From Clostridia bacterium (GTDB taxonomy: Bacteria; Bacillota; Clostridia; Oscillospirales; CAG-382): 46,916 nt of DNA. Positions 1,192 to 46,661 of this stretch are shown piece by piece. How positions within the stretch are numbered: the stretch's first letter is position 1; each line of letters opens with the position of its first letter. A program made the translations under genes and the position numbers. Location: contig CAAEPN010000130.1 of assembly GCA_900757905.1 (NCBI GenBank), positions 1 through 46,916 of the forward strand, given 5' to 3'. The notes beneath the pieces are model-generated. The model was not told the DNA's origin, did no database searches, and worked only from the letters and a program-made list of their open reading frames with translations.

Positions 1192-2643
1192 TCACTTTTT
1201 GTCAGCCGCTGTCAATAGCTGTTTTTCTGTTTTGGCGCTTTCTGATGCCCGTTCGAGCCGCTTTAAAATCACCTCGGCGCAAATGAAGTGAACGGCCGAC
1301 GTGAGAAGCCATGACAGCGGAAAGGAAACGAAAATGCACGCAAGTGTCTGATGCTTCGGGAACACCGCAAGAAGCCACACCACACGGAAAACGCACGAGC
1401 CGGCAAGCGACACACATGCCGCCGTCACCGCGCGTCCGAGTCCCTGCATGGTTCCTGACCCTACCTCCATAAACGCAAGAAAAATATACGGCACAAGCAT
1501 ATAAAATGTGCGTATTTCCGCCGCGTCATACGCCATGCGCTCGACTGAACCGAGCGCCGCCCTATGGATTCCGTATAGAGAAAACAACGGCGCACGGGCA
1601 AGGATCAGCAAGCTGCCAAAGAGGATCGCCGCACCCGCACCGATAAGATAGCAGCACCGGCGCACACTTCTTACACGTTTATAATTCTGCGCACCGGCGT
1701 TCTGCCCCACAAAGCACACTGCCGCCTGTCCCACCGCATTCACCGCAATGTTCGCAAAGCCTTCGATACCGGTTGCGGCCGAAACGCCCTTGACGACCGG
1801 CGCAAACGCGGCGTCAGACGGCGCGGTCAGCGTGTTTACCGTGATGACCGACGACTGAATGAGCATATGCGATACCGAAAACAGCATGCTTTGAACGCCG
1901 GCCGGGAGACCGATGTGCAAGATCTTCAGAAACGGCGTTTTTCGAATGCCTATTTGTGAAAGCTTTAGCTGAAACAGCTCGCTTTTCATGAGCTTACGCA
2001 CAAAAAGCAAGGCGCACAGCGCATTGGAAAGCACGGTCGCCGCCGCCACACCGTCTACCGACCGGCCGCACACAAGCACGAAAAACAGGTTCAATACCAC
2101 ATTCACCGCGCCGCCGAGCGTCAAAATCTTCATCGGCGTTTTGGTATCGCCCGACGCATGAAGTAACGACGAGGAAAAGTTGACTACCGACACAAACGGT
2201 ACGCCGACAAAGTACAGCCGCGTATAAAGTAATGCCAACTCATACAGCTTTCCGCTGTTTCCCATAAAGCGAAGCACGCTGCCGCTTAGTATAAAGCCCG
2301 CCGCGCCGCACAGAACGCCGAAAAGCACGCTCATGCCGAGCGCTGTATTTAAGGTTTCGGATACCGCCTTTTTATTTCCGGCTCCAAGCGAACGCGCCAT
2401 CACCACCTTTGCGCCGACGCTGCACCCGATAAAGACATTGATGATAAGATTGATAAACGAGGACGTCGTACCGACCGCGCCCACTGCGTCCGGCTCGCCG
2501 GAAAGGCCGACCACAACGGTATCGGCCATATTGAACGCCACCTGTAACAGGTTTGCGGCAATAAGCGGCAGGCAAAAACGTAGTATCTGCGGAAAAAGCG
2601 CGCCTTGGAGCATGGAAGCCTGCGCTTTATGTGATTTGTTCAT
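1192..2643 (-). CDS. MATE family efflux transporter
   Basis: 483-aa polytopic membrane ORF with the duplicated MatE-type repeat pattern. Tightly packed downstream of the 2656-4653 gene (12-nt gap). Confidence 0.85.
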   Translation of the reverse strand: MNKSHKAQASMLQGALFPQILRFCLPLIAANLLQVAFNMADTVVVGLSGEPDAVGAVGTTSSFINLIINVFIGCSVGAKVVMARSLGAGNKKAVSETLNTALGMSVLFGVLCGAAGFILSGSVLRFMGNSGKLYELALLYTRLYFVGVPFVSVVNFSSSLLHASGDTKTPMKILTLGGAVNVVLNLFFVLVCGRSVDGVAAATVLSNALCALLFVRKLMKSELFQLKLSQIGIRKTPFLKILHIGLPAGVQSMLFSVSHMLIQSSVITVNTLTAPSDAAFAPVVKGVSAATGIEGFANIAVNAVGQAAVCFVGQNAGAQNYKRVRSVRRCCYLIGAGAAILFGSLLILARAPLFSLYGIHRAALGSVERMAYDAAEIRTFYMLVPYIFLAFMEVGSGTMQGLGRAVTAACVSLAGSCVFRVVWLLAVFPKHQTLACIFVSFPLSWLLTSAVHFICAEVILKRLERASESAKTEKQLLTAADKK

Positions 2644-2655
2644 GTTCGCTTTGCC

Positions 2656-4653
2656 TCACTTTTCAAAGGTGCGGATACACTTATCTTCGTCAGACGGACT
2701 CTCGGCAAGGGCATTGTAGAACTTGATGAAATAGTATAGCAAGCCGTCCTGCTCGTTGGCGTAATCGTCGTAAAACTCGCATTTCACGCCGTTGACCGAA
2801 AACGGATAGAGATAGGTACATGACGCACTTCCGTCCTCACGGTAGAGAGAAAGCATATTGCGTGCGCTTTCATAGGCGCGCGTTTTGTACGCCTTGTCTC
2901 CGCTCACGGCGGCATAGTGCAGAAAGGCGTTGGAGGTATGTACTGATGCCGAATGCGGAAACGTATCGCCATACATGCGCCGCTTGCCGAACCAATAACC
3001 GTCCCAGTGCCGGATGGCTTGATCGTGCAAGAAATGCGACGGTTGGCTGCCGTTGAAGCGTTCGAGGATTTTTATATGCTTGCCGGCGTCGTCAAGCAGA
3101 CGTTTGTCCTCCGTGAGCATATAGAGCTGACTTAAAATGGTTACGGCCGGCGCAACGATGGTCTGCTCGTATTTGACCTCGTGTTCGGGATAATTCGTGC
3201 TGTTTTTCATAATGGTCTCGGCGTGCTTTTTGTACATTTCGGTAAGCGCGTCGGCCTTATCGTCCAAGCCGGCCTTACGCAATGCCGTCACGCTCTCATA
3301 CACCGAAAGGCCGTTGGGATAGAACTTTTCGCCGCCGATAGAATAGTACACCGAAAGTAACTTGAACATCTTCTCAAGATACGCCTTGTCGCCGGTCAAG
3401 TTGTACATTTCAAGCACTAACACCGACATCCACGGGGCGTTGTACAGCCGCTTGAACTCGGTGTGCTTGCCGACGTTGTTATACACCTCGCCGGTCTCTT
3501 CATCGTAAAACTCGCGCGTAACAAATCTATAGTACTTCATGAATTTTTCGTAGACTTCGTCGTCCTTTACCCATTGCAGATACTTTGCCACCAAAAGTCC
3601 CATAACAAGCCGCTCACGCGACGCGTTGAAATCGGTGAACACATAGTCGAATACCTGACATTTCTCCTCGTTGTCATAGATGAGAAACGCGCCGTCTAAC
3701 ATATCGCCCTCTTCATGGAACTGCTGCTTGTCGATGATAAAATGAACGCGGCGTCGAATCAGCTCCTTTAACGGCAGCTGTACGAAAAAGCGCGTTATTG
3801 TCTCGTTTTCTCCCACACGTACCGTAAATAAGTGGTCGCCCAAACGCTCCGGCGAAAGCGACACCTGCGTTTTTCCGTCTTTAACGCAGACCGGAATATT
3901 TTTTCCGTCAAGAAAAATCGAAGCATTCGGATGGTTGACGGTAAACGCTATCTTTTCATTCGAAAAAACGGTGAAATTTTCCGAATCGATCAAAATGAGG
4001 TCCTGTCTTTTTTCAAGCTCTTCGCGGAAATGACCGTCCTTATACCAAAACATTTCCCACGAAAGCTTTATTTTTTCACCGGGTCTTAAGCGAAACGGCG
4101 TCGGGTGCAGAATAAAATCGCCGCGGTCGTCGCTGCCAAGATTGCCGAGACGGTTTACCACGTGTAATATCCGGTCAATGCTGTACGAATCAAGGCTTCC
4201 CTCGGTAAGCACAAGGCCGAGTCCGAAATCGCAAAGACCCATTTTGACCGCGTTTATGTAGGAGGTATTCCGGCCGCACCAGATGTTTGTGTTGCACCGC
4301 TCAGTCATGCAGACTTTCGCGTTGGCATAGCTGTCGCGAAAGGGTGCATAAATGCCAAAATCGCCGCGATTGCAGAAAACATCGCCTTCCAAGCGGTTTT
4401 CAAGCGTATAGGTCTCGCGGTAGGTATCGCCGCAAAGCGCACGCTCCGCCGTAATGCGTAGATAGTAGGTTTCATACACGGTATTTATGCCGTTTTCGGT
4501 CGGCGTGACCGACACAACTTTTGCATTTTTCACCGTGCCCCACGTATTGTTTACACCAAGCCAGTTCATGGCATAAGGGTCGGCAGCGTTTACCATGGAT
4601 TCCACACCGCCGTTTTGTAAATTATAGCGGATTTCAAATAAATTTTCGAACAT
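2656..4653 (-). CDS. hypothetical protein, possibly an (alpha/alpha)6-barrel glycoside hydrolase/lyase-like enzyme
   Basis: Long ORF. I place the start at ATG 4653 (MFENLFEIRY...) because GGAGGAAAGAAGA precedes it; the track ORF begins 57 nt further upstream without an RBS. The helical, aromatic-rich C-terminal half (HWDGYWFGK, GDTFPHSASVHT) and the neighbouring CE2 and AraC genes suggest carbohydrate metabolism. The family was not recognised. Confidence 0.6.
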   Translation of the reverse strand: MFENLFEIRYNLQNGGVESMVNAADPYAMNWLGVNNTWGTVKNAKVVSVTPTENGINTVYETYYLRITAERALCGDTYRETYTLENRLEGDVFCNRGDFGIYAPFRDSYANAKVCMTERCNTNIWCGRNTSYINAVKMGLCDFGLGLVLTEGSLDSYSIDRILHVVNRLGNLGSDDRGDFILHPTPFRLRPGEKIKLSWEMFWYKDGHFREELEKRQDLILIDSENFTVFSNEKIAFTVNHPNASIFLDGKNIPVCVKDGKTQVSLSPERLGDHLFTVRVGENETITRFFVQLPLKELIRRRVHFIIDKQQFHEEGDMLDGAFLIYDNEEKCQVFDYVFTDFNASRERLVMGLLVAKYLQWVKDDEVYEKFMKYYRFVTREFYDEETGEVYNNVGKHTEFKRLYNAPWMSVLVLEMYNLTGDKAYLEKMFKLLSVYYSIGGEKFYPNGLSVYESVTALRKAGLDDKADALTEMYKKHAETIMKNSTNYPEHEVKYEQTIVAPAVTILSQLYMLTEDKRLLDDAGKHIKILERFNGSQPSHFLHDQAIRHWDGYWFGKRRMYGDTFPHSASVHTSNAFLHYAAVSGDKAYKTRAYESARNMLSLYREDGSASCTYLYPFSVNGVKCEFYDDYANEQDGLLYYFIKFYNALAESPSDEDKCIRTFEK

Positions 4654-4761
4654 TCTTCTTTCCTCCGTGTTTTTTGTTTGCCGCCTTTCATTATACGTCA
4701 TCTGCGGCAAATTACCATAGACATTTCGATTCGTTTATTTGCACTTTTCGAAATACTTTGC

Positions 4762-4790
4762 TTGACAGCCATCTTCTTTCGTGCTATACT
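4762..4790 (+). promoter_or_regulatory. sigma-A type promoter of the AraC-family gene
   Basis: TTGACA (4762-4767), 17-bp spacer, TATACT (4785-4790), 19 nt upstream of the ATG at 4809. Confidence 0.6.
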
Positions 4791-4808
4791 TATTTGTGAG
4801 GTGAGCGT

Positions 4809-5651
4809 ATGGGCTTTTGCAGAACAATAACCTTTTCCGAGCTGTATACGCTCGATTTTGAAATCACGGATTTATTTGCCATGCGTCAGAAATGGCGTGC
4901 CGGAACAGAATTTTGCATGGAGCATCCGCGCCGCGCAAACGGGCTTATCCTTCTTTGCGGCGCAACCGGGAAATATACCGGAAATAGCGGTTCTTTCTTT
5001 GCGCCGACCGGAAGCGTGGTCTGTCTGCCTGAAGAGAGCGAATACTCGGTCTTAAACCTTTCGGACGGCAAAGAACCTGACTATCCGGACGCCTATCTCA
5101 TCGAATTTCGTGCGTTTTCACAAAAGATTCCGCTGACCTTCGACGATTCGCCTTTTCTCATCAAAAATGCAAACTTTGTCCTACTTCGTGAGCTTGCCGA
5201 AAAAACGGTGCTTGCCTGCGAAGCGCCGGTAAAATCGCCCTGCACCGTGCGTGCCGAAATCTATGAAATGCTCTCCTTGCTCTGCGAAAGCTCCTTGGAG
5301 GTCGGAAACAAGCGTTTTTCGCCCATCATGCCGGGAATCGAATACTTGCGCAAAAATCCGCAAAGCTCGCTTTCGGTGGAGAAGCTTGCAAAAATGTGCC
5401 ACGTCAGCAGTGCCAATTTTCGCAAGCTGTTCAAGGAATACTCCGGGAAAAGTCCGGCAAGCTACCGTATTGACCGAAAGCTTGACCTTGCCAAAAGAAT
5501 GCTTGAAAGCGAAAAGGTTTCCTTTACTTATATTGCCGAAACGCTCGGCTTTGAAAGCGAAGCCTATTTCAGTCGGCTGTTCAAGAAAAAGATCGGCGTT
5601 TCGCCGCGTGTTTACCGCGAAAACCAACGCAAAGGATGTTTATATGAGTGA
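4809..5651 (+). CDS. AraC family transcriptional regulator
   Basis: 280 aa. N-terminal cupin-like sensor half and a C-terminal double HTH (SVEKLAKMCHVSSANFRKLFK...IAETLGFESEAYFSRLFKKKIGVSPRVYR). Divergent from the esterase/hydrolase/MATE operon. Confidence 0.85.
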   Translation: MGFCRTITFSELYTLDFEITDLFAMRQKWRAGTEFCMEHPRRANGLILLCGATGKYTGNSGSFFAPTGSVVCLPEESEYSVLNLSDGKEPDYPDAYLIEFRAFSQKIPLTFDDSPFLIKNANFVLLRELAEKTVLACEAPVKSPCTVRAEIYEMLSLLCESSLEVGNKRFSPIMPGIEYLRKNPQSSLSVEKLAKMCHVSSANFRKLFKEYSGKSPASYRIDRKLDLAKRMLESEKVSFTYIAETLGFESEAYFSRLFKKKIGVSPRVYRENQRKGCLYE

Positions 5652-6327
5652 ACTAAAAATTATCGCGCATATCCGAACCGACTTTCCCGAAAAGTTCGGC
5701 ATACCGCGCCAAAGCGGCCTTATTGCTGACCTTGCCGGACGCATCGTCTTTGAGCCGGAATACCGCAGTGAGGACGCTTTTCGCGGCATCGAGGGCTACG
5801 ACTATCTCTGGCTGTTATGGGCGTTTGAGGGCACAGAGCGCGGACATTGGTCGGCCACCGTCACGCCGCCACGGCTCGGCGGCAAAAAGACCATGGGCGT
5901 TTTCGCCACACGTTCGCCGTTCCGTCCGAATCCGATCGGACTGTCTTCGGTACGGCTTGACCGGTATGAGCTGACCGATGAGGGGCCGGTCTTATATGTT
6001 TCCGGCGCGGACCTGCGCGACAACACGCCGATCTACGACATCAAGCCGTATCTCGCCTACACCGACAGTCATCCCGACGCACGCGAAGGCTTTGCCGGAC
6101 GCGTCAAGGACAATTCGCTTGAGGTGGACTTTCCGCCGGAGCTACTTGCCGTTTTGCCGGAAAACAAGCGAAAAGCAGCGCTTGCCGTGTTAGCCGAAGA
6201 TCCACGTCCTGCCTATCACGACGATGACAGGCGGTATGGCGTTTCCTTTGCCGGATATGACATCCGTTTTCACGTATCGGAACGGGTATTACGGGTCTGT
6301 GAAGTGGTTCCGCTCAAAAGAAAATGA
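5644..6327 (+). CDS. trmO: tRNA (N6-threonylcarbamoyladenosine(37)-N6)-methyltransferase TrmO (YaeB/TsaA family)
   Basis: In-frame ATG at 5644 (MSELKIIAHIRTDFPEKFGIPRQSG...). Motifs: PPRLGGKKTMGVFATRSPFRPNPIGLS and DIKPY. The 5251 start in the track is an artefactual extension overlapping the AraC gene. The start overlaps the AraC stop by 8 nt. Confidence 0.85.
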   Translation: MSELKIIAHIRTDFPEKFGIPRQSGLIADLAGRIVFEPEYRSEDAFRGIEGYDYLWLLWAFEGTERGHWSATVTPPRLGGKKTMGVFATRSPFRPNPIGLSSVRLDRYELTDEGPVLYVSGADLRDNTPIYDIKPYLAYTDSHPDAREGFAGRVKDNSLEVDFPPELLAVLPENKRKAALAVLAEDPRPAYHDDDRRYGVSFAGYDIRFHVSERVLRVCEVVPLKRK

Positions 6328-6417
6328 GTTTCCCGAAGCTGTTTTGTCGGATTCCCGGATTTTCGGCAAGTCAGTGAGGATTTTTTTGCATTTTTGGCTT
6401 TTTTCACAAAAAAAGTA

Positions 6418-6446
6418 TTGACAAAACACTTATTTTGTGATACCAT
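6418..6446 (+). promoter_or_regulatory. sigma-A type promoter with extended -10 driving the 35-codon micro-ORF
   Basis: TTGACA (6418-6423), 17-bp spacer ending in TGa, TACCAT (6441-6446). Confidence 0.6.
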
Positions 6447-6502
6447 ACACTTGTAAGTTATATGGGTATGCAGTAAAAATATATTTTAGGGGGAAATTCA
6501 CA

Positions 6503-6610
6503 ATGAAAAAAGCATACGAAGCTCCGTCTTTAGACATTACGGTATTCACCTCTTCCGATGACATTCTCGTAGGAAGCGACGTCATCATTGATACGGGCGA
6601 CCTCTTCTAA
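6503..6610 (+). CDS. unannotated 35-aa acidic peptide MKKAYEAPSLDITVFTSSDDILVGSDVIIDTGDLF
   Basis: Hand translation of ATG 6503 to TAA 6610. AGGGGG RBS lies 9 nt upstream. Its own promoter is upstream and a strong terminator downstream. The N-terminal motif is shared with the micro-ORF at 32660-32785. Below the ORF-track size cutoff. Confidence 0.65.
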   Translation: MKKAYEAPSLDITVFTSSDDILVGSDVIIDTGDLF

Positions 6611-6641
6611 AAAGTATCTGTCCGCGTCTTTACGTGACCGT

Positions 6642-6675
6642 AACAGCCATCCGTGGGATGGCTGTTTTTCTTTTT
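6642..6675 (+). terminator. intrinsic terminator of the micro-ORF
   Basis: 11-bp stem aacagccatcc/ggatggctgtt with a 3-nt loop, followed by tttttcttttt. Confidence 0.8.
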
Positions 6676-6868
6676 CTGCCCCACCGCCGCCATCCGGACA
6701 GGCGTAAAGATATTTTATCAAATTTCTTCAGTCGCAAGAAAACGTCGAATAAAGTAACATTTTATTAACATATGTTCCGGCACGTTGTATTATAATTGTA
6801 TCAGGGTAAAATGTACTCTATACAACTTTAGCGGCTTTTGTCCGCTCGGAAAAGGAAGGACATTAAAA

Positions 6869-7585
6869 ATGATCAAAGTAACGATTTTTAACGAATTTAT
6901 CCATGAAGTCGAACAGGAAGCCGCAAAGGCCGTCTATCCGAACGGCATGCATATGGCTATCAAGGAATTTCTCGACGCCGACGGCCGCTTTACCGTTCGC
7001 ACCGCAACGCTTCATGAGCCAGAACACGGTCTCACGCAAGAAGTTCTCGACGACACCGATGTGCTTCTTTGGTGGGGCCACTGTGCGCACCATTTGGTGG
7101 ATGACGCTGTTGTTGAGCGCGTTTACGAGCGCGTTTTGCAGGGCATGGGACTTATCGCGTTGCACTCCGGTCACTTCTCCAAGATATTCAAGAAATTAAA
7201 CGGCACCGGCTGCAACTTAAAATGGCGCGAAAGCGGCGACAAGGAACGCATTTGGATTACGGCGCCCTCTCATCCGATCGCTGCCGGTCTTCCCGAATAT
7301 TTCGAGCTTCCGCACGAAGAGACCTATGGCGAGCATTTCGACATTGCAAAGCCCGATGAAGTGGTCTTTACCAGCTGGTTTACCGGCGGCGAGGTCTTCC
7401 GCAGCGGTGTGACCTTTACGCGCGGCAACGGACGCATCTTCTACTTCCGTCCGGGTCACGAGACCTTCCCGACCTACTATGACAAGAATGTTCAGCGCGT
7501 TATCGAAAACGCGATCGTTTGGGCAGCTGAGCCGAGAGGCGTTTTCCAGACCTACGGCTTCTACAATGCGCCCGAAAGCAAATAA
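6869..7585 (+). CDS. ThuA domain-containing protein (trehalose-utilisation ThuA family)
   Basis: ATG 6869 preceded by AAAGGAAGG. Motifs: [50 protein letters not shown]. The track start at 6785 is an upstream TTG extension. Confidence 0.8.
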
Positions 7586-32322: not shown

Positions 32323-32335
32323 TACGGATACGAAA

Positions 32336-32366
32336 AAGGCAGATACAGAAAATCTGTATCTGCCTT
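32336..32366. terminator. left bracket hairpin of repeat copy 1
   Basis: aaggcagatacag-aaaat-ctgtatctgcctt (13-bp stem) preceded by aaaaa. It is the reverse complement of the hairpin at 32560-32590. Confidence 0.7.
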
Positions 32367-32560
32367 CAGACTGTTGCAAAAGTCTATAAGGTTTTTCGGG
32401 CGAAACCCGATTTCAATTAAAATCTGAAAAATCCGGGGACATGCGCCACGGATTTTTCACCGATAGATTCGCGAGTGTCAAAAAGCGAAGTTTTTTGGCA
32501 TGAGGCGCGAGCACACGAATCTGTTTCCGTGTCGTAAAACAAAGTTTTGCAACACGCTCA
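32367..32560 (-). repeat. structured ~193-nt intergenic repeat, copy 1 (inverted relative to copies 2 and 3)
   Basis: The reverse complement aligns end to end with 43282-43474 and 45479-45670. It contains the same internal hairpins: a 13-bp cgtgt(c/t)gcaaaac stem and a 10-bp gaaaaatccg/cggatttttc stem. Confidence 0.9.
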
Positions 32561-32594
32561 AGGCAGATACAGATTTTCTGTATCTGCTTTTTTT
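32560..32594. terminator. right bracket hairpin of repeat copy 1 (terminator for asnA-direction transcripts)
   Basis: aaggcagatacag-atttt-ctgtatctgcttt followed by tttt. Confidence 0.7.
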
Positions 32595-32597
32595 GCG

Positions 32598-32636
32598 CAA
32601 AAATGACCGGCCCTCCGCAAAGCGGAAAGCCGGCCG
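32598..32636 (-). terminator. probable terminator of the 971-aa gene/micro-ORF operon
   Basis: On the minus strand, ccggc...gccgg encloses an inner tccgc/gcgga hairpin, followed by tcattttt. Homologous to the terminator at 35986-36026. Confidence 0.5.
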
Positions 32637-32659: not shown

Positions 32660-32785
32660 TTATTCAACAGGATCTTCTTCTGCTTCATCATCTGCATATT
32701 GATCGATCATGTTCACATTCATGCTGTTCATGAGAATATCCTCAATGACTTCAAGCGCAAGCTTTGGTGACATATACTTTTTCAT
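32660..32785 (-). CDS. unannotated 41-aa acidic peptide MKKYMSPKLALEVIEDILMNSMNVNMIDQYADDEAEEDPVE
   Basis: Hand translation of the minus strand. AAGAGGTG RBS. The ATG lies 15 nt after the stop of the 971-aa gene. The N-terminus is paralogous to the 6503-6610 peptide. Below the ORF-track cutoff. Confidence 0.6.
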   Translation of the reverse strand: MKKYMSPKLALEVIEDILMNSMNVNMIDQYADDEAEEDPVE

Positions 32786-32800
32786 AATCACACCTCTTTT

Positions 32801-35716
32801 TTAATTGCCGGACGTATCTTCGCAAATACTAAGAATATTTTTAATATAGTCATTGTCCTGATATCCGGAGGATTCGGAGATCTTTTTCGCCGCTTCATAA
32901 ATGCTTTCCTTGCGTACAGCACTGTAATAGGTCACACCGCCGCATGTCACATAGGAGCGCAAATGGAGCGTTTCGGTAAGCGTGGCTTTTCTCTCCGGTA
33001 CGTTAATGACAACTGCGTTGAAAGAAGCCGTTTCGCCGTCGCCCGTGTCAACAATGTTTGCCGCAGAAACGCTTGCATGGGCACAATATTTCGTATTGTT
33101 TACCTTTTCATTTGTCAAAACAAGATTTTCGTCCAAGCCGCCGAACTGTTCAACAAAATGCTTATCGCGCGTTGCAAGGAAGCCGATCTCATCCGCATTT
33201 GTATAGGCGGCAAGGTTGAGATTGGTCTTGAAGCGAATGCCGGGTGTGCCGGAAACGCGCACGGAGACGGAATCGTCAAAGGCAAGGCCAACGGTTTCGC
33301 CTACCTGCCAAGTCTTGCCGGCGATGTCGGCAATGCTTACGGTCTCACCGGCCGCATAGGTCGTTGTGCCGTTTTTCCACGTGAGGACGTCCGCACCGTT
33401 GAAATTGGTCGGGAAGGTGTAGGTTTCGTCAGACGCAATTTCATAAGCACGGTTGTCGCCGTTGGAATCGATAAGCCAAAGTGCGTTGTCGGGCTTTACA
33501 TAGACGGCGAGAGAACGGGCATAGTACTCTCTTGAAGCCGTGTCAGCAATCGACAAACCGAAACGAGACAACTCCACAGTTTGCTTGCTATCTTTTGTAA
33601 TATATTCGTCAAGGAACGTGGGAAGTGTATGAATGGTTTGGTATCCGCTCTTAGGTGCAAGCGTAGAGTTGTCTCCCACCGCCAACCCATACCGGATGTA
33701 GTGATTCCATGTAGGTGTAAAACTCGTACCAATTGTTCTTCCTTCAATATTGGCATTCCATGTAGCAGGAGTAGCAGCTGTCTGAACGCCGTAATTCGGT
33801 AAATTATCAGATTCATTACAAATTGAAGCTAAAATAGAAACCTGACCGCTCATGGTTTTACCGTTCGTATATTTCCACGAATCGCCGTTTCGTTCAAATT
33901 CATAGAATTTAACACCAGCATTTCCGGATATAGGTTGAACAGCATAATAACCAGCTTTTACTTTGATCGTATCACTTGCATTTTTTACAAAACTGATATC
34001 TGCAATATTGGTAAAGCCGATATCGTCGGAGAAATTATCAAACCAAACGAGCTGACCGTAGGTTTCGTCGTATTCAGCCGGAATAGCTGCAATCTTTACC
34101 GGATAAATCGTTTTAGCAGCAATAGTAGATTTTGCAATTTCACTGCCAGCCGTCCAAAGCGTAGCACCGTCTGTCCATGCAGTGACAGTTTCACCATTGA
34201 AAACTGTCGGGAATGTGTATGTATCACCGGAAATTACCGCAAAGGTACGATCTGCGCCGGTTGAATCAGAAGCAAGCCAAAGGGCATTTGTAGGCTGAAT
34301 ATACACTTTAAAGTTATCGTAATATATTCTGTTGCTATCTGAAATTACGTAGCGCAAATCAACGGATTTTACTTGTGTATTTGTACCTCCTACATCTGAT
34401 TGAGATACAGCACTGGTTGTCCATATACCAGCGTTATTTTTGTTCATTTTACTCCAAAAAGAAGTGCTCTCGTTGAGCATTGCAAAACCATATCCAGTGG
34501 TCTGATCATTCTCAAATGCATAATCTGCAAACCACGTTAATTTACCTTCAACATTTGTACCGTCCGGATATGTCCATACGCTGCTATCATCTTTTTTAAC
34601 AATAGCTTTTGCGAAACTTGCACTGTCTTTTGAAACGCTTGAAACGACATTATTGCCAACAACATTTGCAGAACCAGTTATTACAAGATTCTTAACCGGC
34701 GAATTTGCTTCAAATTCGTTGGTTAATACTTTTGACGTTTCATTGTTAAAGCCTGTGTAGAATAATAACTGACCGTAAGTCGTGTCATAAGCTTCAGGCA
34801 TTTCTTCGTATGCTATCGGGAAGTAGGTTTTTCCTGCAAGGTCTGCCGCCGTATAGGAAACACCGGCTTCATACATATTTGTTCCGTCTGTCCAAATCTT
34901 TACATTAGTATTGTTAAAAGAATTCGGAAAAATATAAGTTTCACCGGAAGCAGGCGTTAAAGTACGGTTGCTTCCTTCCGTGTCGGAAGTAAGCCAAAGC
35001 GCGTTATCTGGCTGAACATAAACTTTAAGATTATCAAAGTAAAGCGTGTCCACATTACCCGCGTCGGAATGACCGATTTCAATTTTCGTAACACCATTTG
35101 TTCGATTGATATTCTTAAATTGGTTTGCATCAATCGTTTTATAATCCAATAAAGATTTGGTGGTAAGCCACTGCTTGGCTGTTTTGATTGTCAGTCCGTA
35201 AAGATCATCACCGGTTGCAAGACTTGGGGCAAATCTTAAAAACAGATAGTCCTTAGTAACTTCATCCACATCAAAATAATAGTCCGCAAAGAAATAAAAT
35301 TGACCGGTAACCACCGTACCGTCTGAATACTTCCATACTTCACCATTGCTTGATGTGACTCCGGTACCAACATAACTACCATTGCCAAACGCACCGCCTT
35401 TGGCAATAGTTGCCGTTCTGCCGTCTACCGTAGCAGAGCCTCCGCCGATGGCCTTAAGACCTTTAACAGGAGATTCTTCTTCAATCTCATTTGCTAACGA
35501 GTTTTCCGTGTTGAAACCACTGTAAAACAGTAATTGCCCATAGGTATCATCATACGTCGCAATGGTTTCTTCGTCGCTCAAAGCCGCATTATCGGCTTTT
35601 TCCACGATCTCTTCTGCGGCTTCAGGCACTTCGAATTCAAACGCCGCGACCGGCAGCATTTGAACAAGCATGCACAAAGCCAAAACTAAGACAAATAAAC
35701 GCTGTGTTTTTTTCAT
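32801..35716 (-). CDS. large secreted modular repeat protein (function unknown)
   Basis: 971 aa. Signal peptide MKKTQRLFVLVLALCMLVQMLPVAA|FEFE. Three ~250-aa modules each begin with Y-D-x-T-Y-G-Q-L-(L/V)-(F/W)-(Y/F) and end with Y-(V/I)-Q/K-P-x-N-A-L-W-L...ETYTFP...W.DG...AG...IAGKT. A C-terminal ~170-aa domain (FDDSVSVR.SG.PGIRFKT...ADEIGFLATRD) is shared with the downstream paralog. No LPXTG, SLH, dockerin or choline-binding motif was seen. Confidence 0.85.
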   Translation of the reverse strand: MKKTQRLFVLVLALCMLVQMLPVAAFEFEVPEAAEEIVEKADNAALSDEETIATYDDTYGQLLFYSGFNTENSLANEIEEESPVKGLKAIGGGSATVDGRTATIAKGGAFGNGSYVGTGVTSSNGEVWKYSDGTVVTGQFYFFADYYFDVDEVTKDYLFLRFAPSLATGDDLYGLTIKTAKQWLTTKSLLDYKTIDANQFKNINRTNGVTKIEIGHSDAGNVDTLYFDNLKVYVQPDNALWLTSDTEGSNRTLTPASGETYIFPNSFNNTNVKIWTDGTNMYEAGVSYTAADLAGKTYFPIAYEEMPEAYDTTYGQLLFYTGFNNETSKVLTNEFEANSPVKNLVITGSANVVGNNVVSSVSKDSASFAKAIVKKDDSSVWTYPDGTNVEGKLTWFADYAFENDQTTGYGFAMLNESTSFWSKMNKNNAGIWTTSAVSQSDVGGTNTQVKSVDLRYVISDSNRIYYDNFKVYIQPTNALWLASDSTGADRTFAVISGDTYTFPTVFNGETVTAWTDGATLWTAGSEIAKSTIAAKTIYPVKIAAIPAEYDETYGQLVWFDNFSDDIGFTNIADISFVKNASDTIKVKAGYYAVQPISGNAGVKFYEFERNGDSWKYTNGKTMSGQVSILASICNESDNLPNYGVQTAATPATWNANIEGRTIGTSFTPTWNHYIRYGLAVGDNSTLAPKSGYQTIHTLPTFLDEYITKDSKQTVELSRFGLSIADTASREYYARSLAVYVKPDNALWLIDSNGDNRAYEIASDETYTFPTNFNGADVLTWKNGTTTYAAGETVSIADIAGKTWQVGETVGLAFDDSVSVRVSGTPGIRFKTNLNLAAYTNADEIGFLATRDKHFVEQFGGLDENLVLTNEKVNNTKYCAHASVSAANIVDTGDGETASFNAVVINVPERKATLTETLHLRSYVTCGGVTYYSAVRKESIYEAAKKISESSGYQDNDYIKNILSICEDTSGN

Positions 35717-35756
35717 GCTGATTTACAACTCCTTTTATTAATTTTTCAGCTGTTTT

Positions 35757-35785
35757 AATTATACAACACGTCTATTTATTTGTAA
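35757..35785 (-). promoter_or_regulatory. consensus sigma-A promoter of the 971-aa gene
   Basis: Minus strand: TTTACA (35785-35780), 17 bp, TATAAT (35762-35757). AAAAGGAG RBS before ATG 35716. Confidence 0.7.
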
Positions 35786-35985
35786 ATGTAAAAATACGAC
35801 ATCTCGCCATTTTTATTGAACTTTCTCGACATCTTTTGAGAGATCGGCTGTCTGTTCAGGCTACTCTAAAAAGCTCCCTGTTCAAAAACAAAATTTTGTG
35901 TAAAGCAGGGATAACTTTTAACCAAATATTAGCTAAAACAGCTAAATCTGCGATTTCGGATAAAGAAGCCGGCACCTCAAAAACG

Positions 35986-36026
35986 GATAAAAAAAACCGG
36001 CCGTCCGATTTCTCGGAAAGCCGGTT
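35986..36026 (-). terminator. intrinsic terminator of the disrupted paralog
   Basis: Minus strand: aaaccggc-18 nt-gccggttt followed by a T-run (A-run 35985-35995 on +). Confidence 0.7.
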
Positions 36027-36054
36027 TAAAAGGAGAGAATATGAATACGCTAAA

Positions 36055-38695
36055 TCAGTTATTTTCGCAGGTGTCGATGATCTGCTGGATATACTCGTTA
36101 TCTTCGTAGCCGGTAAGCTTCTTAGCGGCACTATAGATACTTTCCTTGCGAACAGCGCTATAGTAAGTTGCGTTGCCGATCGTCACATAAGAACGCAAGT
36201 GCAGCATTTCCGTAAGCGTTTCTTTTTGCATCGGAACGCCGACTACCAGTGCATTGAAAGCGGCAACTCCATCCTCTTCGATAATGTACTTCTGAATATC
36301 GTCTTTTGCAATTCTTACGATAACGCAGGATTTTCCGTTCTGTGCAGCTTCATTATCTAAGACAAAGTTTTCATCCTTGCCCTCAAACTGTGCGTTGAAC
36401 AGCGTATCACGCGTTGCCAAGAAACCGATCTCATCGGCATTAACGCGCGAAGCGAGGTCGATCTTCGTCTTAAAGCGGATACCGGTCACGCCGGAGGTAC
36501 GCACGGAAACGGAATCGTCAAAGTCGATATCCACCGTCTGGCTGACCTGCCAGGTCTTACCGGCAACATCGGCGATGTTTACGGTCTCACCGGCTTTGTA
36601 ATAGTCCGAACCGTCCGCAAGCGTCCAGGTATAGACCTTTGCGCCGTTAAAGGTGGTCGGGAACGTATAGGTTTCGCCGGAAGCGACGCTGTAGGTACGG
36701 TTTTCGCCCTCGGAGTCAACTAACCAAAGTGCGTTGGACGGCTGGATATAGACGGCGATAGCACGGCAATATTCAGTACGCCAGTCATTGGACAATATAC
36801 CGATATTGGTAAAATCTGCCAAGGAAAGCGGTACGGATCGAACCATACCCCATTTTTTGGCGGCAAGCGTACTTTTCACAAGATTCCAAGTTGTGTAGTA
36901 TGCGCCCCAGCCGTTAGGATCTGTTTTAGAATCATACGAATACGGCGCTCCGACGGTAAATCTATTCGGCAAGCTGTCGTAATCGACGTAAAGCTCGGCA
37001 TAAATGCTGATCTTACCGGTCATGGCCTTGCCGTCGGTATAGACCCAGTTTGCTCCGTCGGAGGGGGTTACTTCGATACCGACTACGTTCGGACTAAGCT
37101 TGGATTGACCGCATCTTAACGTTGTAAAGCCGCCAAAATCCCGCTTTTCGGCAAGGGTAAAGTCAGCAAGCTTGATATCGGCAATATTTGTAAAGCCGGT
37201 CTTGCCGGAGAAGTTATCGAAATAGATAAGCTGGCCGTAGGTCTCGTCATAAGAAACCGGTGCAGCCTGAATGGAGATCGGATAAAGCGTCTTTCCGGCA
37301 ATATCTGCCTTTGCGGCGCTTTCACCGGTTGCCCATACCTTGCTGCCGTCCGTCCAGTATGAAACGTTCTTGCCGACAATCTCGGACGGGATCGCATAGG
37401 TATCGTCCTCGAGTTTCACAGCACACGGTCGCTTCCGGCCGCATCCGAGGTGAGCCAGAACGAATCGTCCGGTAAGAAGTAAACGCCGATGGCACGTGCA
37501 TAAGCGCCGGATTGGTTGTTATTGTTGAACGTACCAAAACGGGTATCGGTGCTCAAAAGAGCAAGGCTGTCAAAGTAGAGCTTGGTATAGGTATTTGCCT
37601 TTGCGGTCTTGGTCTGCCACGGCGTAATGACGCCGCCGCCCCAACCGGACCAGTTCCCGGCATTCGAGGTACGCTTGGAAACGACCGACCAATAAGCCTT
37701 ATCGCTATTCTGGCTGTAAATTTCGGCATAGAATGTCACTTTACCGGAAAGCAGCGAACGGTTTTCGTCAAGAAAACGGAAGCTGTCATCGCCGTCGGCA
37801 TATTCGACTTCGAAACCGTAGGTGGTAACTCTGTCGCTGACGTTACCGCTCTTAACCGCATAGTAACCTGCGTAAGTGGACGGATCCGGCATCGTCGAAG
37901 CGATCTTGATATTGGTAAGATTTTCAAAATCGTTGTCGGAGGCGAAGTTTTCAAAATAAACAAGCTGACCGTAGGTCTTGTCATACTCGGCAGGACGCGC
38001 GGCACTCTTGTAGGCGTTGCAGTAGACTCTTACATTATCAATATAGTACACTTCGCCGTTGCAATTCTTATGCAGCACATACTGCGTATAAGCCTTGAGG
38101 GATTCCTCCGTCAGGTTATTGCCCGGAAGCTGGAAGGTTTCCTTATAGGTATACCATGCGCCGGTTCCTTTGACATACGAGCCACCATTCCAAGGTTCGG
38201 GGCGGACGATTTGCCGTCGTAACAAACGCCGATAAAGTGCGTCCAAAAGCCCGAAGCCGTGCTTTCCTCCGGAACGTAGATATCGACAAGTACGGTATAA
38301 TCGCCGGGAGTGGAAAGGTTATCGGTAAAGTCTACCTGATAGCCGCCGTGCGCGCTGGTTTGCGTGACCTTTAACGCCTTGCCTGTCTTTTCGCTGTCCG
38401 GGTTTTCGACAAGCTCCAGCGAAGACGAATAGCTGCCGGCCGTATAAGCGCCGGCTGCATAGGTCGCGGTAGAAGCGTCGGTCTCGTCAAAATTATTGTA
38501 CCAGACAAGTTTTCCCAAGGTCTCATCTTCTGTGGGAATATCGATATCGGCAGCAAGTGCGGTTTTATCCGGAACTGCTTCGATAAGCTCCGCAGCCGTT
38601 TCGGGTGTTTCAAATTCGAACGCGCTTACCGTGAGCGGTTGGATCAAAAGACACAAAACGAGAAGCAAAACCAATGCGTGATGTGATTTTCTCAT
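36055..38695 (-). pseudogene. paralog of the 971-aa secreted repeat protein, split into three ORFs by two 1-nt deletions
   Basis: Track ORFs 38111-38746, 37416-38246 and 36055-37419 are consecutive pieces of one gene. They carry a signal peptide (MRKSHHALVLLLVLCLLIQPLTVSA|FEFE), the same TYGQL modules and the same C-terminal domain. The span from ATG 38695 to the stop is 2641 nt, which is 881 codons minus 2 nt. Confidence 0.75.
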
Positions 38696-38734
38696 AAAAA
38701 ACACAACTCCTTTTCTATATTTTTTAGTAATTTT

Positions 38735-38763
38735 ATTATACCGCATCCAGTTTTATTTGTAAA
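38735..38763 (-). promoter_or_regulatory. consensus sigma-A promoter of the disrupted paralog
   Basis: Minus strand: TTTACA (38763-38758), 17 bp, TATAAT (38740-38735). AAAAGGAG RBS before ATG 38695. Confidence 0.7.
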
Positions 38764-43236: not shown

Positions 43237-43252
43237 GATTTTGCACAAAAGA

Positions 43253-43281
43253 AAGGGCAACCAACTTAAATTGGTTGCCTT
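43253..43281. terminator. left bracket hairpin of repeat copy 2
   Basis: ggcaaccaa-cttaaa-ttggttgcc preceded by aaaagaaa. This acts as a terminator for minus-strand transcripts. Confidence 0.65.
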
Positions 43282-43474
43282 AAGCGTGTCGCAAAACTTC
43301 GTTTTGCGACACGAAAACAGATTCGTGCGCTCGCGCCTCATGCCAAAAAGCTCCGCTTTTCGATACTCGCGAATCTATCGGAGAAAAATCCGTGGCGCAT
43401 GTCCCCGGATTTTTCAGATTTTTTATTGATATCGGGCTTCGCACGAAAAGCTTTATGGACTTTTACAACAGTCT
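43282..43474 (+). repeat. structured ~193-nt intergenic repeat, copy 2
   Basis: Aligns over its full length with copies 1 (reverse complement) and 3. Internal hairpins at 43285-43313 (13-bp stem) and 43383-43415 (10-bp stem, followed by agatttttt). Confidence 0.9.
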
Positions 43475-43506
43475 AAGGGCAGCCAATTTGAATTGGCTGC
43501 CCTTTT
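43475..43506. terminator. right bracket hairpin of repeat copy 2
   Basis: gggcagccaa-tttgaa-ttggctgccc followed by tttt. Near-inverted copy of the left bracket, with 4 substitutions. Confidence 0.65.
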
Positions 43507-45403: not shown

Positions 45404-45437
45404 GTGACGATTTGCACAAAAAAGCCATAAAAGAAAA

Positions 45438-45476
45438 ACCGTATCTTCCTACGGCAAAAACCATAGAAGATACGGT
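45438..45476 (-). terminator. terminator hairpin adjoining repeat copy 3
   Basis: 11-bp stem accgtatcttc/gaagatacggt with a 17-nt loop, followed on the minus strand by ttttctttt. Terminates the isomerase transcript after it has crossed the repeat. Confidence 0.6.
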
Positions 45477-45478
45477 CT

Positions 45479-45670
45479 GAGCGTGTCGCAAAACTACGTT
45501 TTACGACACGGAAACAGATTCGTGCGCTCGCGCCTCATGCCAAAAAGCTTCGCTTTTCGACACTCGCGAATCTATCGGTGAAAAATCCGTGGCACATGTC
45601 CCCGGATTTTTCAGATTTTTATTGGAATCGGGCTTTGCCCAAAAAGTCTATAAGACTTTCGCAACGGTCT
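45479..45670 (+). repeat. structured ~193-nt intergenic repeat, copy 3
   Basis: Full-length alignment with copies 1 and 2. It lies between the isomerase stop (45687) and its terminator. ACGGTCT occurs both just left of the element and at its right end. Confidence 0.9.
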
Positions 45671-45686
45671 ATTTACTTTTTAAGCA

Positions 45687-46661
45687 TTAAGCCCAGAACA
45701 TTCCGCCGGGCTTGGGTTCGGAAATAATGATGCGGCGAAGGAATGCAATCGCCTTTTCAAGGCCTTCCTTGCTGCTCATGAAGCTATCCTCATGTTCGAT
45801 ACTCATAACATGGTTATAGCCGGTAAGCTGAAGCATGGAGATCATATCCTTCCACTTCTTCTCATCCGTACCGTAGCCGAGCGCACGGAACACCCACGAG
45901 CGGTGGATCTCATCGCTGTAATGCTTGGTATCGAGAACGCCGTTGATTTCGGTATTGCGGCGGTTGACGCAGGTATCCTTTGCATGGAAATGGAACATAG
46001 CGCCGTTTTCGCCGATGTAGCGAATGGCTTCTACCGGGTCGATACCCTGCCAAATGAGGTGGGACGGATCGAAGTTTGCGCCGAGGCACGGGCCGACGGC
46101 ATTACGGAGCTTCATAAGGGTTTCGGGATTATAGACGCAGAAGCCGGGGTGCATTTCGAAAGCGATCTTATTAACGCCGTACTTTGCGGCATATTCGGAT
46201 TCTTTCTGCCAATACGGGATGAGCACGTCGTTCCACTGGTAATCGAGGATATGGAGAAAATCCTCCGGCCACGGGCAAGTAACCCAGTTCGGAGTCTTAT
46301 CTTCAGGCGAGCCGCCGGGGCAGCCGGAAAAAGTAATGACCATCGGAATTTCGAGTTCGTTTGCGAGAACGCAGGTACGTTCGAAATCTTCATGGAATTT
46401 TGCAGCGACCTCTTTATCGGGATGGACGGCGTTGCCATGGGTAGAAAGTGCAGAAATTTCGATATCGTACTTTTTAAAGAGATCCTTGAATGCCTTTAAT
46501 TTGCTCTTATCGGCGAGAAGCTCCTCGCGGTTGCAATGGCCTTGTCCGGGAAATCCGCCGGTACCGATCTCAACGGCTTCGACGCCGAGGCCCTTGACGT
46601 ATGCAAGCATATCTTCGAGGGAGCGGTCATAAAGCGGAACGGTGACTAATCCTACTTTCAT
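45687..46661 (-). CDS. sugar phosphate isomerase/epimerase (xylose-isomerase-like TIM barrel)
   Basis: ATG 46661 after AAAGGAAG (MKVGLVTVPLYDRSLEDML...). Motifs of the AP-endonuclease-2/TIM family: VEIGTGG, IAFEMHPG, NFDPSH, HFHAKD, SIEHED. The track ORF extends 240 nt upstream across a terminator. Confidence 0.8.
   Translation of the reverse strand: MKVGLVTVPLYDRSLEDMLAYVKGLGVEAVEIGTGGFPGQGHCNREELLADKSKLKAFKDLFKKYDIEISALSTHGNAVHPDKEVAAKFHEDFERTCVLANELEIPMVITFSGCPGGSPEDKTPNWVTCPWPEDFLHILDYQWNDVLIPYWQKESEYAAKYGVNKIAFEMHPGFCVYNPETLMKLRNAVGPCLGANFDPSHLIWQGIDPVEAIRYIGENGAMFHFHAKDTCVNRRNTEINGVLDTKHYSDEIHRSWVFRALGYGTDEKKWKDMISMLQLTGYNHVMSIEHEDSFMSSKEGLEKAIAFLRRIIISEPKPGGMFWA

Follow-up and report, generated by a model that had tools for sequence, protein, structure and literature searches.

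A ~192-bp non-coding element of gut Clostridia, probably a MITE-type transposon that integrates at the palindromes of intrinsic terminators

IS1630 of Mycoplasma fermentans, a member of the IS30 family, inserts at stem-loop targets of variable sequence and duplicates the whole repeat, 19-26 bp (PMC2853133, PMC3317919). ISMhom-1 of M. hominis, also of the IS30 family, similarly uses inverted-repeat targets that are duplicated on insertion (PMC7648426). The duplications made by these two elements are 16-26 bp long, with examples of 16, 23, 25 and 26 bp (PMC2853133, PMC3317919, PMC7648426). IS1272 of staphylococci, from the IS1182 family, recognizes a stem-loop target by its structure; these targets are 22-30 bp, vary in sequence and are often just downstream of genes (PMC5678879). 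As an alternative to replacement of the stem-loop by IS1272, Wan et al. described a pathway b, in which attack at the feet of a cruciform duplicates the whole stem-loop (PMC5678879). A miniature element that duplicates terminators is absent from a 2024 review of prokaryotic MITEs (PMC10969869) and from the open-access literature that we searched.

The element described here resembles bacterial MITEs such as Correia, RUP, BOX/SPRITE and MITEAba12 in that it is small, non-coding, multi-copy and intergenic, with inverted-repeat ends, stable folds and insertion polymorphism. However, the target duplications of other bacterial MITEs are about 2-10 bp and defined by sequence, whereas this element duplicates whole terminators. 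Three copies of ~193 nt each, 90-95% identical by a repeat finder and a three-way alignment, lie in the window (the whole stretch of DNA analysed, 46,916 nt). Their features are as follows.

32336-32366, no strand: duplication on the asnA side of copy 1, aaggcagatacagaaaatctgtatctgcctt, a terminator palindrome
32367-32559, minus strand: copy 1 of the element, 193 nt, reverse relative to asnA; nhmmer E = 2e-64
32560-32589, no strand: second terminator hairpin of copy 1, followed by a T-tract
43254-43281, no strand: left duplication of copy 2, agggcaaccaacttaaattggttgcctt, downstream of the PhoR-like kinase gene; a minus-strand terminator-like site
43282-43475, plus strand: copy 2 of the element, 194 nt; from repeat finder, alignment, folding and covariation
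43282-43313: left inverted repeat and hairpin 1 of copy 2
43318-43382: conserved core of copy 2
43383-43415: hairpin 2 of copy 2
43432-43446: GC hairpin of copy 2
~43459-43475: right inverted repeat of copy 2
43476-43504, no strand: right duplication of copy 2, agggcagccaatttgaattggctgccctt, followed by a T-tract; a plus-strand terminator-like site
45438-45476, minus strand: hairpin and T-tract adjoining copy 3 on its left, which terminate the AP_endonuc_2 gene on the minus strand
45479-45671, plus strand: copy 3 of the element, 193 nt; from repeat finder, alignment and nhmmer

The original prediction, made from the letters of the window, was of three ~193-nt copies identical at roughly nine in ten positions, and at more in the first ~135 nt. 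The repeat finder and the alignment bear this out. The repeat finder reports inverted arms at 32368-32560 and 45478-45670 (193 nt, 90% complementary) and at 32419-32565 and 43276-43422 (147 nt, 93%), and a direct pair at 43283-43423 and 45480-45620 (141 nt, 95%). In the three-way alignment the copies are similar from end to end, being nearly identical up to ~135 nt and more variable in the right third. Across the family the length is about 191-197 nt (~192 bp). The termini are GAGCGTGTCGCAAAAC...CTTTTGCAACAGTCTG, an imperfect inverted repeat of ~16 bp; (T)GAGCGTGTCGCAAAAC and (T)CAGACTGTTGCAAAAG match at 11-13 of 16-17 positions, in agreement with the imperfect inverted-repeat ends first proposed, and are found in nearly all full copies, and the outermost 3-4 nt vary among copies.

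Three hairpins had been described as kept in every window copy. All are present, but hairpin 1 (cgtgtcgcaaaac-N3-gttttgcgacacg) is perfect only in copy 2, with a C.A mismatch in copies 1 and 3, and the short GC hairpin (tcgggc-ttc-gcccga) is damaged in copy 2. Hairpin 2 is gaaaaatccg-N13-cggatttttc, followed by AGATTTTT. The predicted folds of the window copies are far more stable than those of shuffled sequences (z = -7.2 to -9.2). Open reading frames within the element run to only 9-20 codons before a stop and are broken by indels between copies, on which grounds a short conserved ORF was rejected, and no Pfam-bearing ORF overlaps the element. A scan of the whole window with Rfam 15 gave 0 matches at the gathering threshold and nothing credible at E <= 10, where the best sub-threshold match was FsrA (23.6 bits against a threshold of 80). 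No Infernal hit thus arose to take away the novelty of the element, which had been put forward as matching no named family.

The window is ordinary chromosomal DNA, with genes for AsnA, a phosphate transporter, a PhoB/PhoR-like pair, MATE, DUF4186, AP_endonuc_2, racemases and a Mur ligase. Called genes and Pfam place the copies where they had been reported, behind asnA, the PhoR-like kinase gene (PAS/HisKA/HATPase) and the sugar isomerase gene (AP_endonuc_2, xylose-isomerase-like). Copy 3 sits 15 nt past the stop codon of the minus-strand AP_endonuc_2 gene (45687-45689), ahead of that gene's terminator. The positioning in gene 3' regions extends to the family as a whole: the great majority of copies follow the 3' end of a gene, mostly between convergent genes or genes in tandem, and their orientation to the neighbouring genes is not fixed.

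Near copy 1, a small acidic ORF of ~41 codons (about 32660-32785, minus strand) lies between the asnA terminator and a giant gene, and is called as a gene of 42 and 37 aa in L058 (1169-1297) and L059 (3576-3689), respectively. It is this ORF, not the 971-aa gene, that is convergent with asnA at the copy 1 site, and it has a terminator of its own at 32605-32635. There are two paralogous giant genes (32801-38746, minus strand), one of 971 aa, which have no Pfam match and share segments that are 72-76% identical (repeat families D1, D3 and D4). L058, where the giant-gene block spans 1313-7136, has the second of them as one gene of 872 aa; in the window it is split into three ORFs, at 36055-37419, 37416-38246 and 38111-38746.

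The family extends well beyond this contig. A search with a 20-mer from the core found 47 metagenome loci, 43 of them with the element, mostly in human-gut assemblies. Matches in the freshwater loci L027, L035, L037 and L041 were dismissed as chance, since there the 20-mer falls within a conserved coding gene that is otherwise unlike the element. A search with the hairpin 2 pattern found one MAG, labelled uncultured Eubacteriales; this pattern demanded CAGA after hairpin 2, which many copies do not have, and the spread across species is therefore underestimated. By profile search there are ~50 instances across 44 loci beyond the window (the 43 metagenome loci and the one MAG), in unrelated gene neighbourhoods. 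Many copies are cut by contig ends, as expected of a dispersed repeat. The host belongs to an uncultured lineage of Clostridia from the human gut; the closest named relative of a flanking protein is from a Ruminococcaceae MAG (67% identity).

Of 25 independent loci with both flanks, 15 have a direct repeat of 23-33 bp immediately next to the two ends of the element, with a score that 0 of 300 shuffles of the flanks equal; L018, with a flanking direct repeat of 19 bp, is a 16th case. The flanking duplication is absent from the other 10 of the 25. The repeats are stable palindromes (-10 to -24 kcal/mol), of a different sequence at every locus, that span the stem from foot to foot plus about 2 nt per side, usually with A-rich DNA before the left repeat and T-rich DNA after the right one. 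Palindromes flanked in this way are the signature of a bidirectional intrinsic terminator. The target of integration is set by shape and not by sequence: the element goes to the GC-rich palindromes of intrinsic terminators that follow genes. Scores for direct repeats exceed those for inverted repeats in 14 of 16 flank pairs, and the loop has the same orientation in both repeats at L017, L044, L045, L014, L013, L026 and L032; the repeats are therefore duplications rather than parts of one long stem. The long-stem (inverted duplication) reading was rejected, since the loops are mostly direct and an empty site has a single hairpin.

Copies 1 and 2 of the three in the window are flanked by direct repeats. 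The duplication around copy 1 falls within the span of the original prediction (32336-32594) and went unremarked there. A 30-31-bp terminator hairpin, aaggcagatacag-N3-ctgtatctgcctt, stands on each side of copy 1, and for this reason the repeat finder also reports a 49-nt inverted repeat around it (32333-32381 and 32545-32593). The segments at 32336-32366 and 32560-32589 form a repeat of 31 bp with 4 mismatches (0 of 300 shuffles as good), and their loops are reverse complementary (aaa at 32347-32349, ttt at 32571-32573), an outcome not expected of simple gap repair. Around copy 2 the hairpins are agggcaaccaa...ttggttgcctt on one side and agggcagccaa...ttggctgccctt on the other, forming a flanking repeat of 27 bp with 4 mismatches (again, 0 of 300 shuffles as good), and between its left and right repeats there is a compensated change in the stem, from A-T to G-C. 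The bracketing hairpins match within a copy and differ between the two copies, and the structured divergence within each pair suggests template switching or selection that keeps both hairpins. Copy 3 has no matching hairpin on the side away from the AP_endonuc_2 terminator and no significant flanking repeat. Copy 3 is one of the ten loci without a duplication, which also include L056 and L001, likewise with one hairpin only, and L006 and L025, with two unrelated hairpins. L013 and L034 have the left flank in common but not the right.

The motif TTTGCRCAAAA occurs in the 47-kb window only at 32591-32602, 43240-43250 and 45411-45421 (0.44 occurrences expected). All three sites are just outside the left-side hairpins of the window copies, on the side of the GAGCGTG end, and the motif resembles the GCAAAA core of the element's own ends. 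It is also present at the empty site of L058 and is therefore part of the target. As a feature of the family it was rejected, being present in 0 of 47 other distinct left flanks.

Related strains show the sites with and without the element. In L058, whose kinase is 98% identical to that of the window, the asnA stop codon is followed by AAAAAA-ggcaggtacaggtttactgtatctgcc-TTTTTTT, with one hairpin and no element. The sequence downstream is the same as in the window and the flanks are collinear, the occupied site reading hairpin-element-hairpin where L058 has the single hairpin; the comparison with sister strains suggested at the outset did, then, turn up an empty site. In L056, a 96% relative, the element is at the same asnA hairpin in the orientation opposite to that of window copy 1. 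In this relative a 6.2-kb block is deleted with its endpoint exactly at the right terminus of the element (L056 7272/7273), which is joined directly to the promoter region of the phosphate transporter. The window, L058 and a 76% relative all have the 6.2 kb missing from L056, with the two giant genes, and its loss looks like a transposon-adjacent deletion. In relatives with 76% kinase identity the element lies behind the same kinase gene inside a different, nearly perfect 28-30-bp hairpin duplication, which implies independent insertions at the orthologous terminator. Lastly, L062 has a full copy beside the MATE/kinase terminator and L063-L066 are without the element, the MATE protein being identical in all of them; the difference between L062 (2076-2271) and L063 is a replacement, not a clean insertion.

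Where L062 has its full copy, L063 has a 22-nt stretch, GAGCGCGTCGCATTTTAGAGTC, at 1915-1936 (the same in L064-L066). The first 12 nt of this stretch match the left end of the element at 11 of 12 positions, in the orientation opposite to the L062 copy, and the stretch may be the footprint of an earlier copy. Several reduced or diverged forms also occur. Hairpin 1 stands alone (agcgtgccgcaaaac-ttc-gttttacggcacg) behind genes at L038 4826-4857, where it adjoins a terminator, and at L002 1984-2017; both are of the GTGCCGC variant. These solo copies are REP-like in look and could be minimal two-ended units or remnants. A copy at L036 2545-2661 is truncated after ~85 nt and preceded by a degenerate palindrome like hairpin 1, and is possibly an insertion into the hairpin of another copy. 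There is an internally deleted copy of ~60 nt at L042 4256-4281 and half a hairpin at L013 5829-5848. At L007 2343-2440 a terminator hairpin is immediately followed by sequence distantly related to the core (cacagattcatgcactcgcgtttcatgtcgg...ctctcagaatctc); the neighbourhood holds no transposase, and this sequence may represent an older or different subfamily. The partial matches at L036, L038, L042, L013 and L007 were considered as insertion-sequence ends and rejected, as they are truncated, solo-hairpin or distant copies.

The element is mobile and non-coding, it lands on terminator palindromes, and the whole palindrome mostly ends up on both sides of it. It has the small size, lack of coding capacity, terminal inverted repeats, dispersed copies, target-site duplication and empty sites by which MITEs are recognized. 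The suggestion that it is MITE-like is thus upheld, by its ends, the absence of an ORF, the ~50 instances, the target duplications, the empty sister site and the adjacent deletion. We conclude that the family is probably a non-autonomous, MITE-type transposon that integrates in a structure-directed manner at the feet of intrinsic-terminator palindromes behind genes.

We postulate that a transposase acting in trans would join the two ends of the element to different strands, one at each foot of the palindrome, which is probably extruded as a cruciform when attacked. Repair of the two single-stranded gaps would then copy the whole hairpin. By analogy, the enzyme would most likely be of the DDE type, from an IS30-like or IS1182-like family. 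The ten loci without a duplication could reflect asymmetric attack, later deletion, local re-insertion into a duplicated target, or recombination between copies. After such an insertion either flanking gene would still read into a hairpin; the inner hairpin would be stripped of most of its T-tract, and therefore transcription probably runs on through the element, as a 3' extension, as far as the outer hairpin.

The closest parallels to this behaviour are IS1630 and ISMhom-1, which likewise target and duplicate variable palindromes behind or between genes, the duplications of our element ranging from 19 to 33 bp. This likeness is one of insertion behaviour. IS1630 and ISMhom-1 are autonomous elements of 1.2-1.4 kb from Mollicutes, with a transposase gene and 27-bp inverted repeats, whereas the element is ~192 bp, non-coding and from gut Clostridia. 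With IS1272, as described, it shares a stem-loop target read by structure and terminal inverted repeats of about 16 bp. However, IS1272 is autonomous, with a transposase of 548 aa, and it replaces the stem-loop without duplicating it, whereas the element is non-coding and mostly duplicates its target, with 10 of 25 loci lacking the duplication. Replacement of the IS1272 type does not describe most copies, and only the 10 non-duplicated loci would fit replacement or one-sided outcomes. A link to the IS30 or IS1182 family is thus one of functional analogy and not of membership. The ends may also resemble ISL3-type inverted repeats; an ISL3-type origin was rejected because the 8-bp duplications of the ISL3 family do not fit. 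The ~192-bp family is previously undescribed, and the hairpin-duplicating mode itself is known for IS1630 and ISMhom-1 and has been modelled for IS1272.

We searched for an autonomous partner in several ways. There is no transposase gene in the window, as first stated; Pfam found only housekeeping genes among 20 window ORFs. A full-length autonomous element sharing the termini had been suggested as something to look for, but the window, ~520 kb of related loci, and the plasmids, phages and viral contigs searched yielded none. A blast search with the ends alone across all loci gave remnants only, and an all-against-all comparison of ORFs found no multi-copy ORF and no transposase domain in the ~520 kb. 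Searches of plasmids and phages with the element and each end by blastn, including at E <= 10, gave only chance matches of 19-31 nt, and viral contigs scanned with the core 20-mer and a degenerate hairpin 1 pattern gave 0 matches. Since neither a partner nor a transposase was found, the enzyme family and its chemistry are ones that we infer only.

The interior of the element is its most conserved part, which is unlike a typical MITE: a core of ~100 nt is near-invariant, and the outermost 3-4 nt and the right third vary. This core comprises stem 2, an AAAAGC/GCTTTT hairpin, and hairpin 2, whose 13-nt loop is fixed. It has 0.6-1.6% private changes per site per copy, a rate that leaves out the 20-mer, against 3.8-4.6% in the spacer and right part. 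The 20-mer is invariant by construction, because it was used for fishing copies; L062, a copy found without it, has one change within it. Orthologous copies from different samples differ at 2 of 340 core sites and 29 of 565 sites elsewhere (~9-fold), in pairs that are not fully independent, and this difference suggests a constraint beyond transposition. In the hairpins of 28 distinct copies, 13 pairs are changed on both sides, compared with 4.7 +/- 1.3 in shuffles (0 of 500) and far lower values in slid controls. Most of these double substitutions fall in hairpins 1 and 2, and they go back to very few independent events. The core also holds a promoter-like TTGACA/TCGACA-18-AAAAAT, plus a hairpin followed by a T-run. 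The core may be conserved because transposition needs it in cis, through gene conversion, or because it has a function for the host. It is conceivable, although we hold the idea only tentatively, that selection keeps the near-invariant core and that structure-guided transposition spreads a functional RNA or DNA module to many gene ends.

The same observations bear on a different account of the family, in which it is primarily a functional structured RNA or protein-binding DNA module of 3' UTRs (possible roles being those of terminator, insulator, sRNA precursor or RNA-stability element), its spread being secondary and its core kept by host selection. The pairing kept through double substitutions in hairpins 1 and 2, the slow change of the core, both in private changes and between orthologous copies, the T-run after hairpin 2 and the promoter-like site all speak for it. 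Against it, both orientations to adjacent genes occur, even at one site, and presence or absence varies among near-identical strains. The wobble evidence for a functional strand is contradictory, with C.A in hairpin 1 and T.G in stem 2 favouring different strands in different helices. Moreover, Rfam has no match, conservation is lowest downstream of the promoter-like site, and template switching also makes compensated changes in palindromes with no need for selection. We consider this account unlikely. A mobile structured RNA module, as originally suggested, is conceivable in that the hairpins covary and the core is unusually conserved, but the orientation to neighbouring genes is not fixed.

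Covariation of the hairpins, which suggests folding as a single strand, together with the REP-unit-like solo copies of hairpin 1 behind genes (L038 and L002), could also point to an element that moves as single-stranded DNA in the manner of REP/REPIN-RAYT or IS200/IS605 (PATE) elements, by a hairpin-recognising HUH/Y1 transposase. The element does resemble REPs and REPINs in being an extragenic palindrome behind genes. However, REP and IS200/IS605 families have neither target duplications nor terminal inverted repeats, and REPs lack a structured body of ~190 bp; here there are 15-16 loci with duplications of 19-33 bp, an empty site with one hairpin, and a complex interior within ~192 bp. No conserved target motif of 4-5 nt lies beside the ends, and the window ORFs and the related loci searched hold no RAYT or TnpA gene. 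This origin is very improbable, and the earlier description of the element as REP-like is not supported. Class C group II introns target intrinsic terminators, and the position of the element right at such terminators recalls them, as would be the case for a remnant or satellite of a terminator-targeting retroelement or the product of some other RNA-mediated insertion. Such a derivation is scarcely credible: Rfam shows no group II intron or retron even at E <= 10, no reverse transcriptase was seen, and inverted-repeat ends with duplication of a full hairpin are not made by retrohoming. A MITE-type transposon directed to the feet of terminator palindromes remains the reading that we prefer.

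The autonomous insertion sequences documented to integrate at terminator palindromes by structure are few and come from mycoplasmas and staphylococci; an abundant miniature element of uncultured gut Clostridia now shows this signature too. Its copies number dozens per genome, or one in about 15 kb of the window, and are polymorphic between near-identical strains. The element breaks metagenome assemblies, doubles terminators and seeds deletions, as in the 6.2-kb loss in L056, and it can lengthen the 3' UTRs of convergent genes into overlapping transcripts. Its shape-defined, variable duplications are a natural data set on the way in which a transposase reads DNA structure over sequence. If the core is indeed a selected module, it could act as a 3'-UTR structure, a terminator insulator, an outward promoter, an sRNA or a protein-binding site, and the enzyme that moves it may be one that reads the feet of cruciforms, so far undescribed for Clostridia. 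With a core so unusually conserved, the family is a candidate for a regulatory module carried by a transposon.
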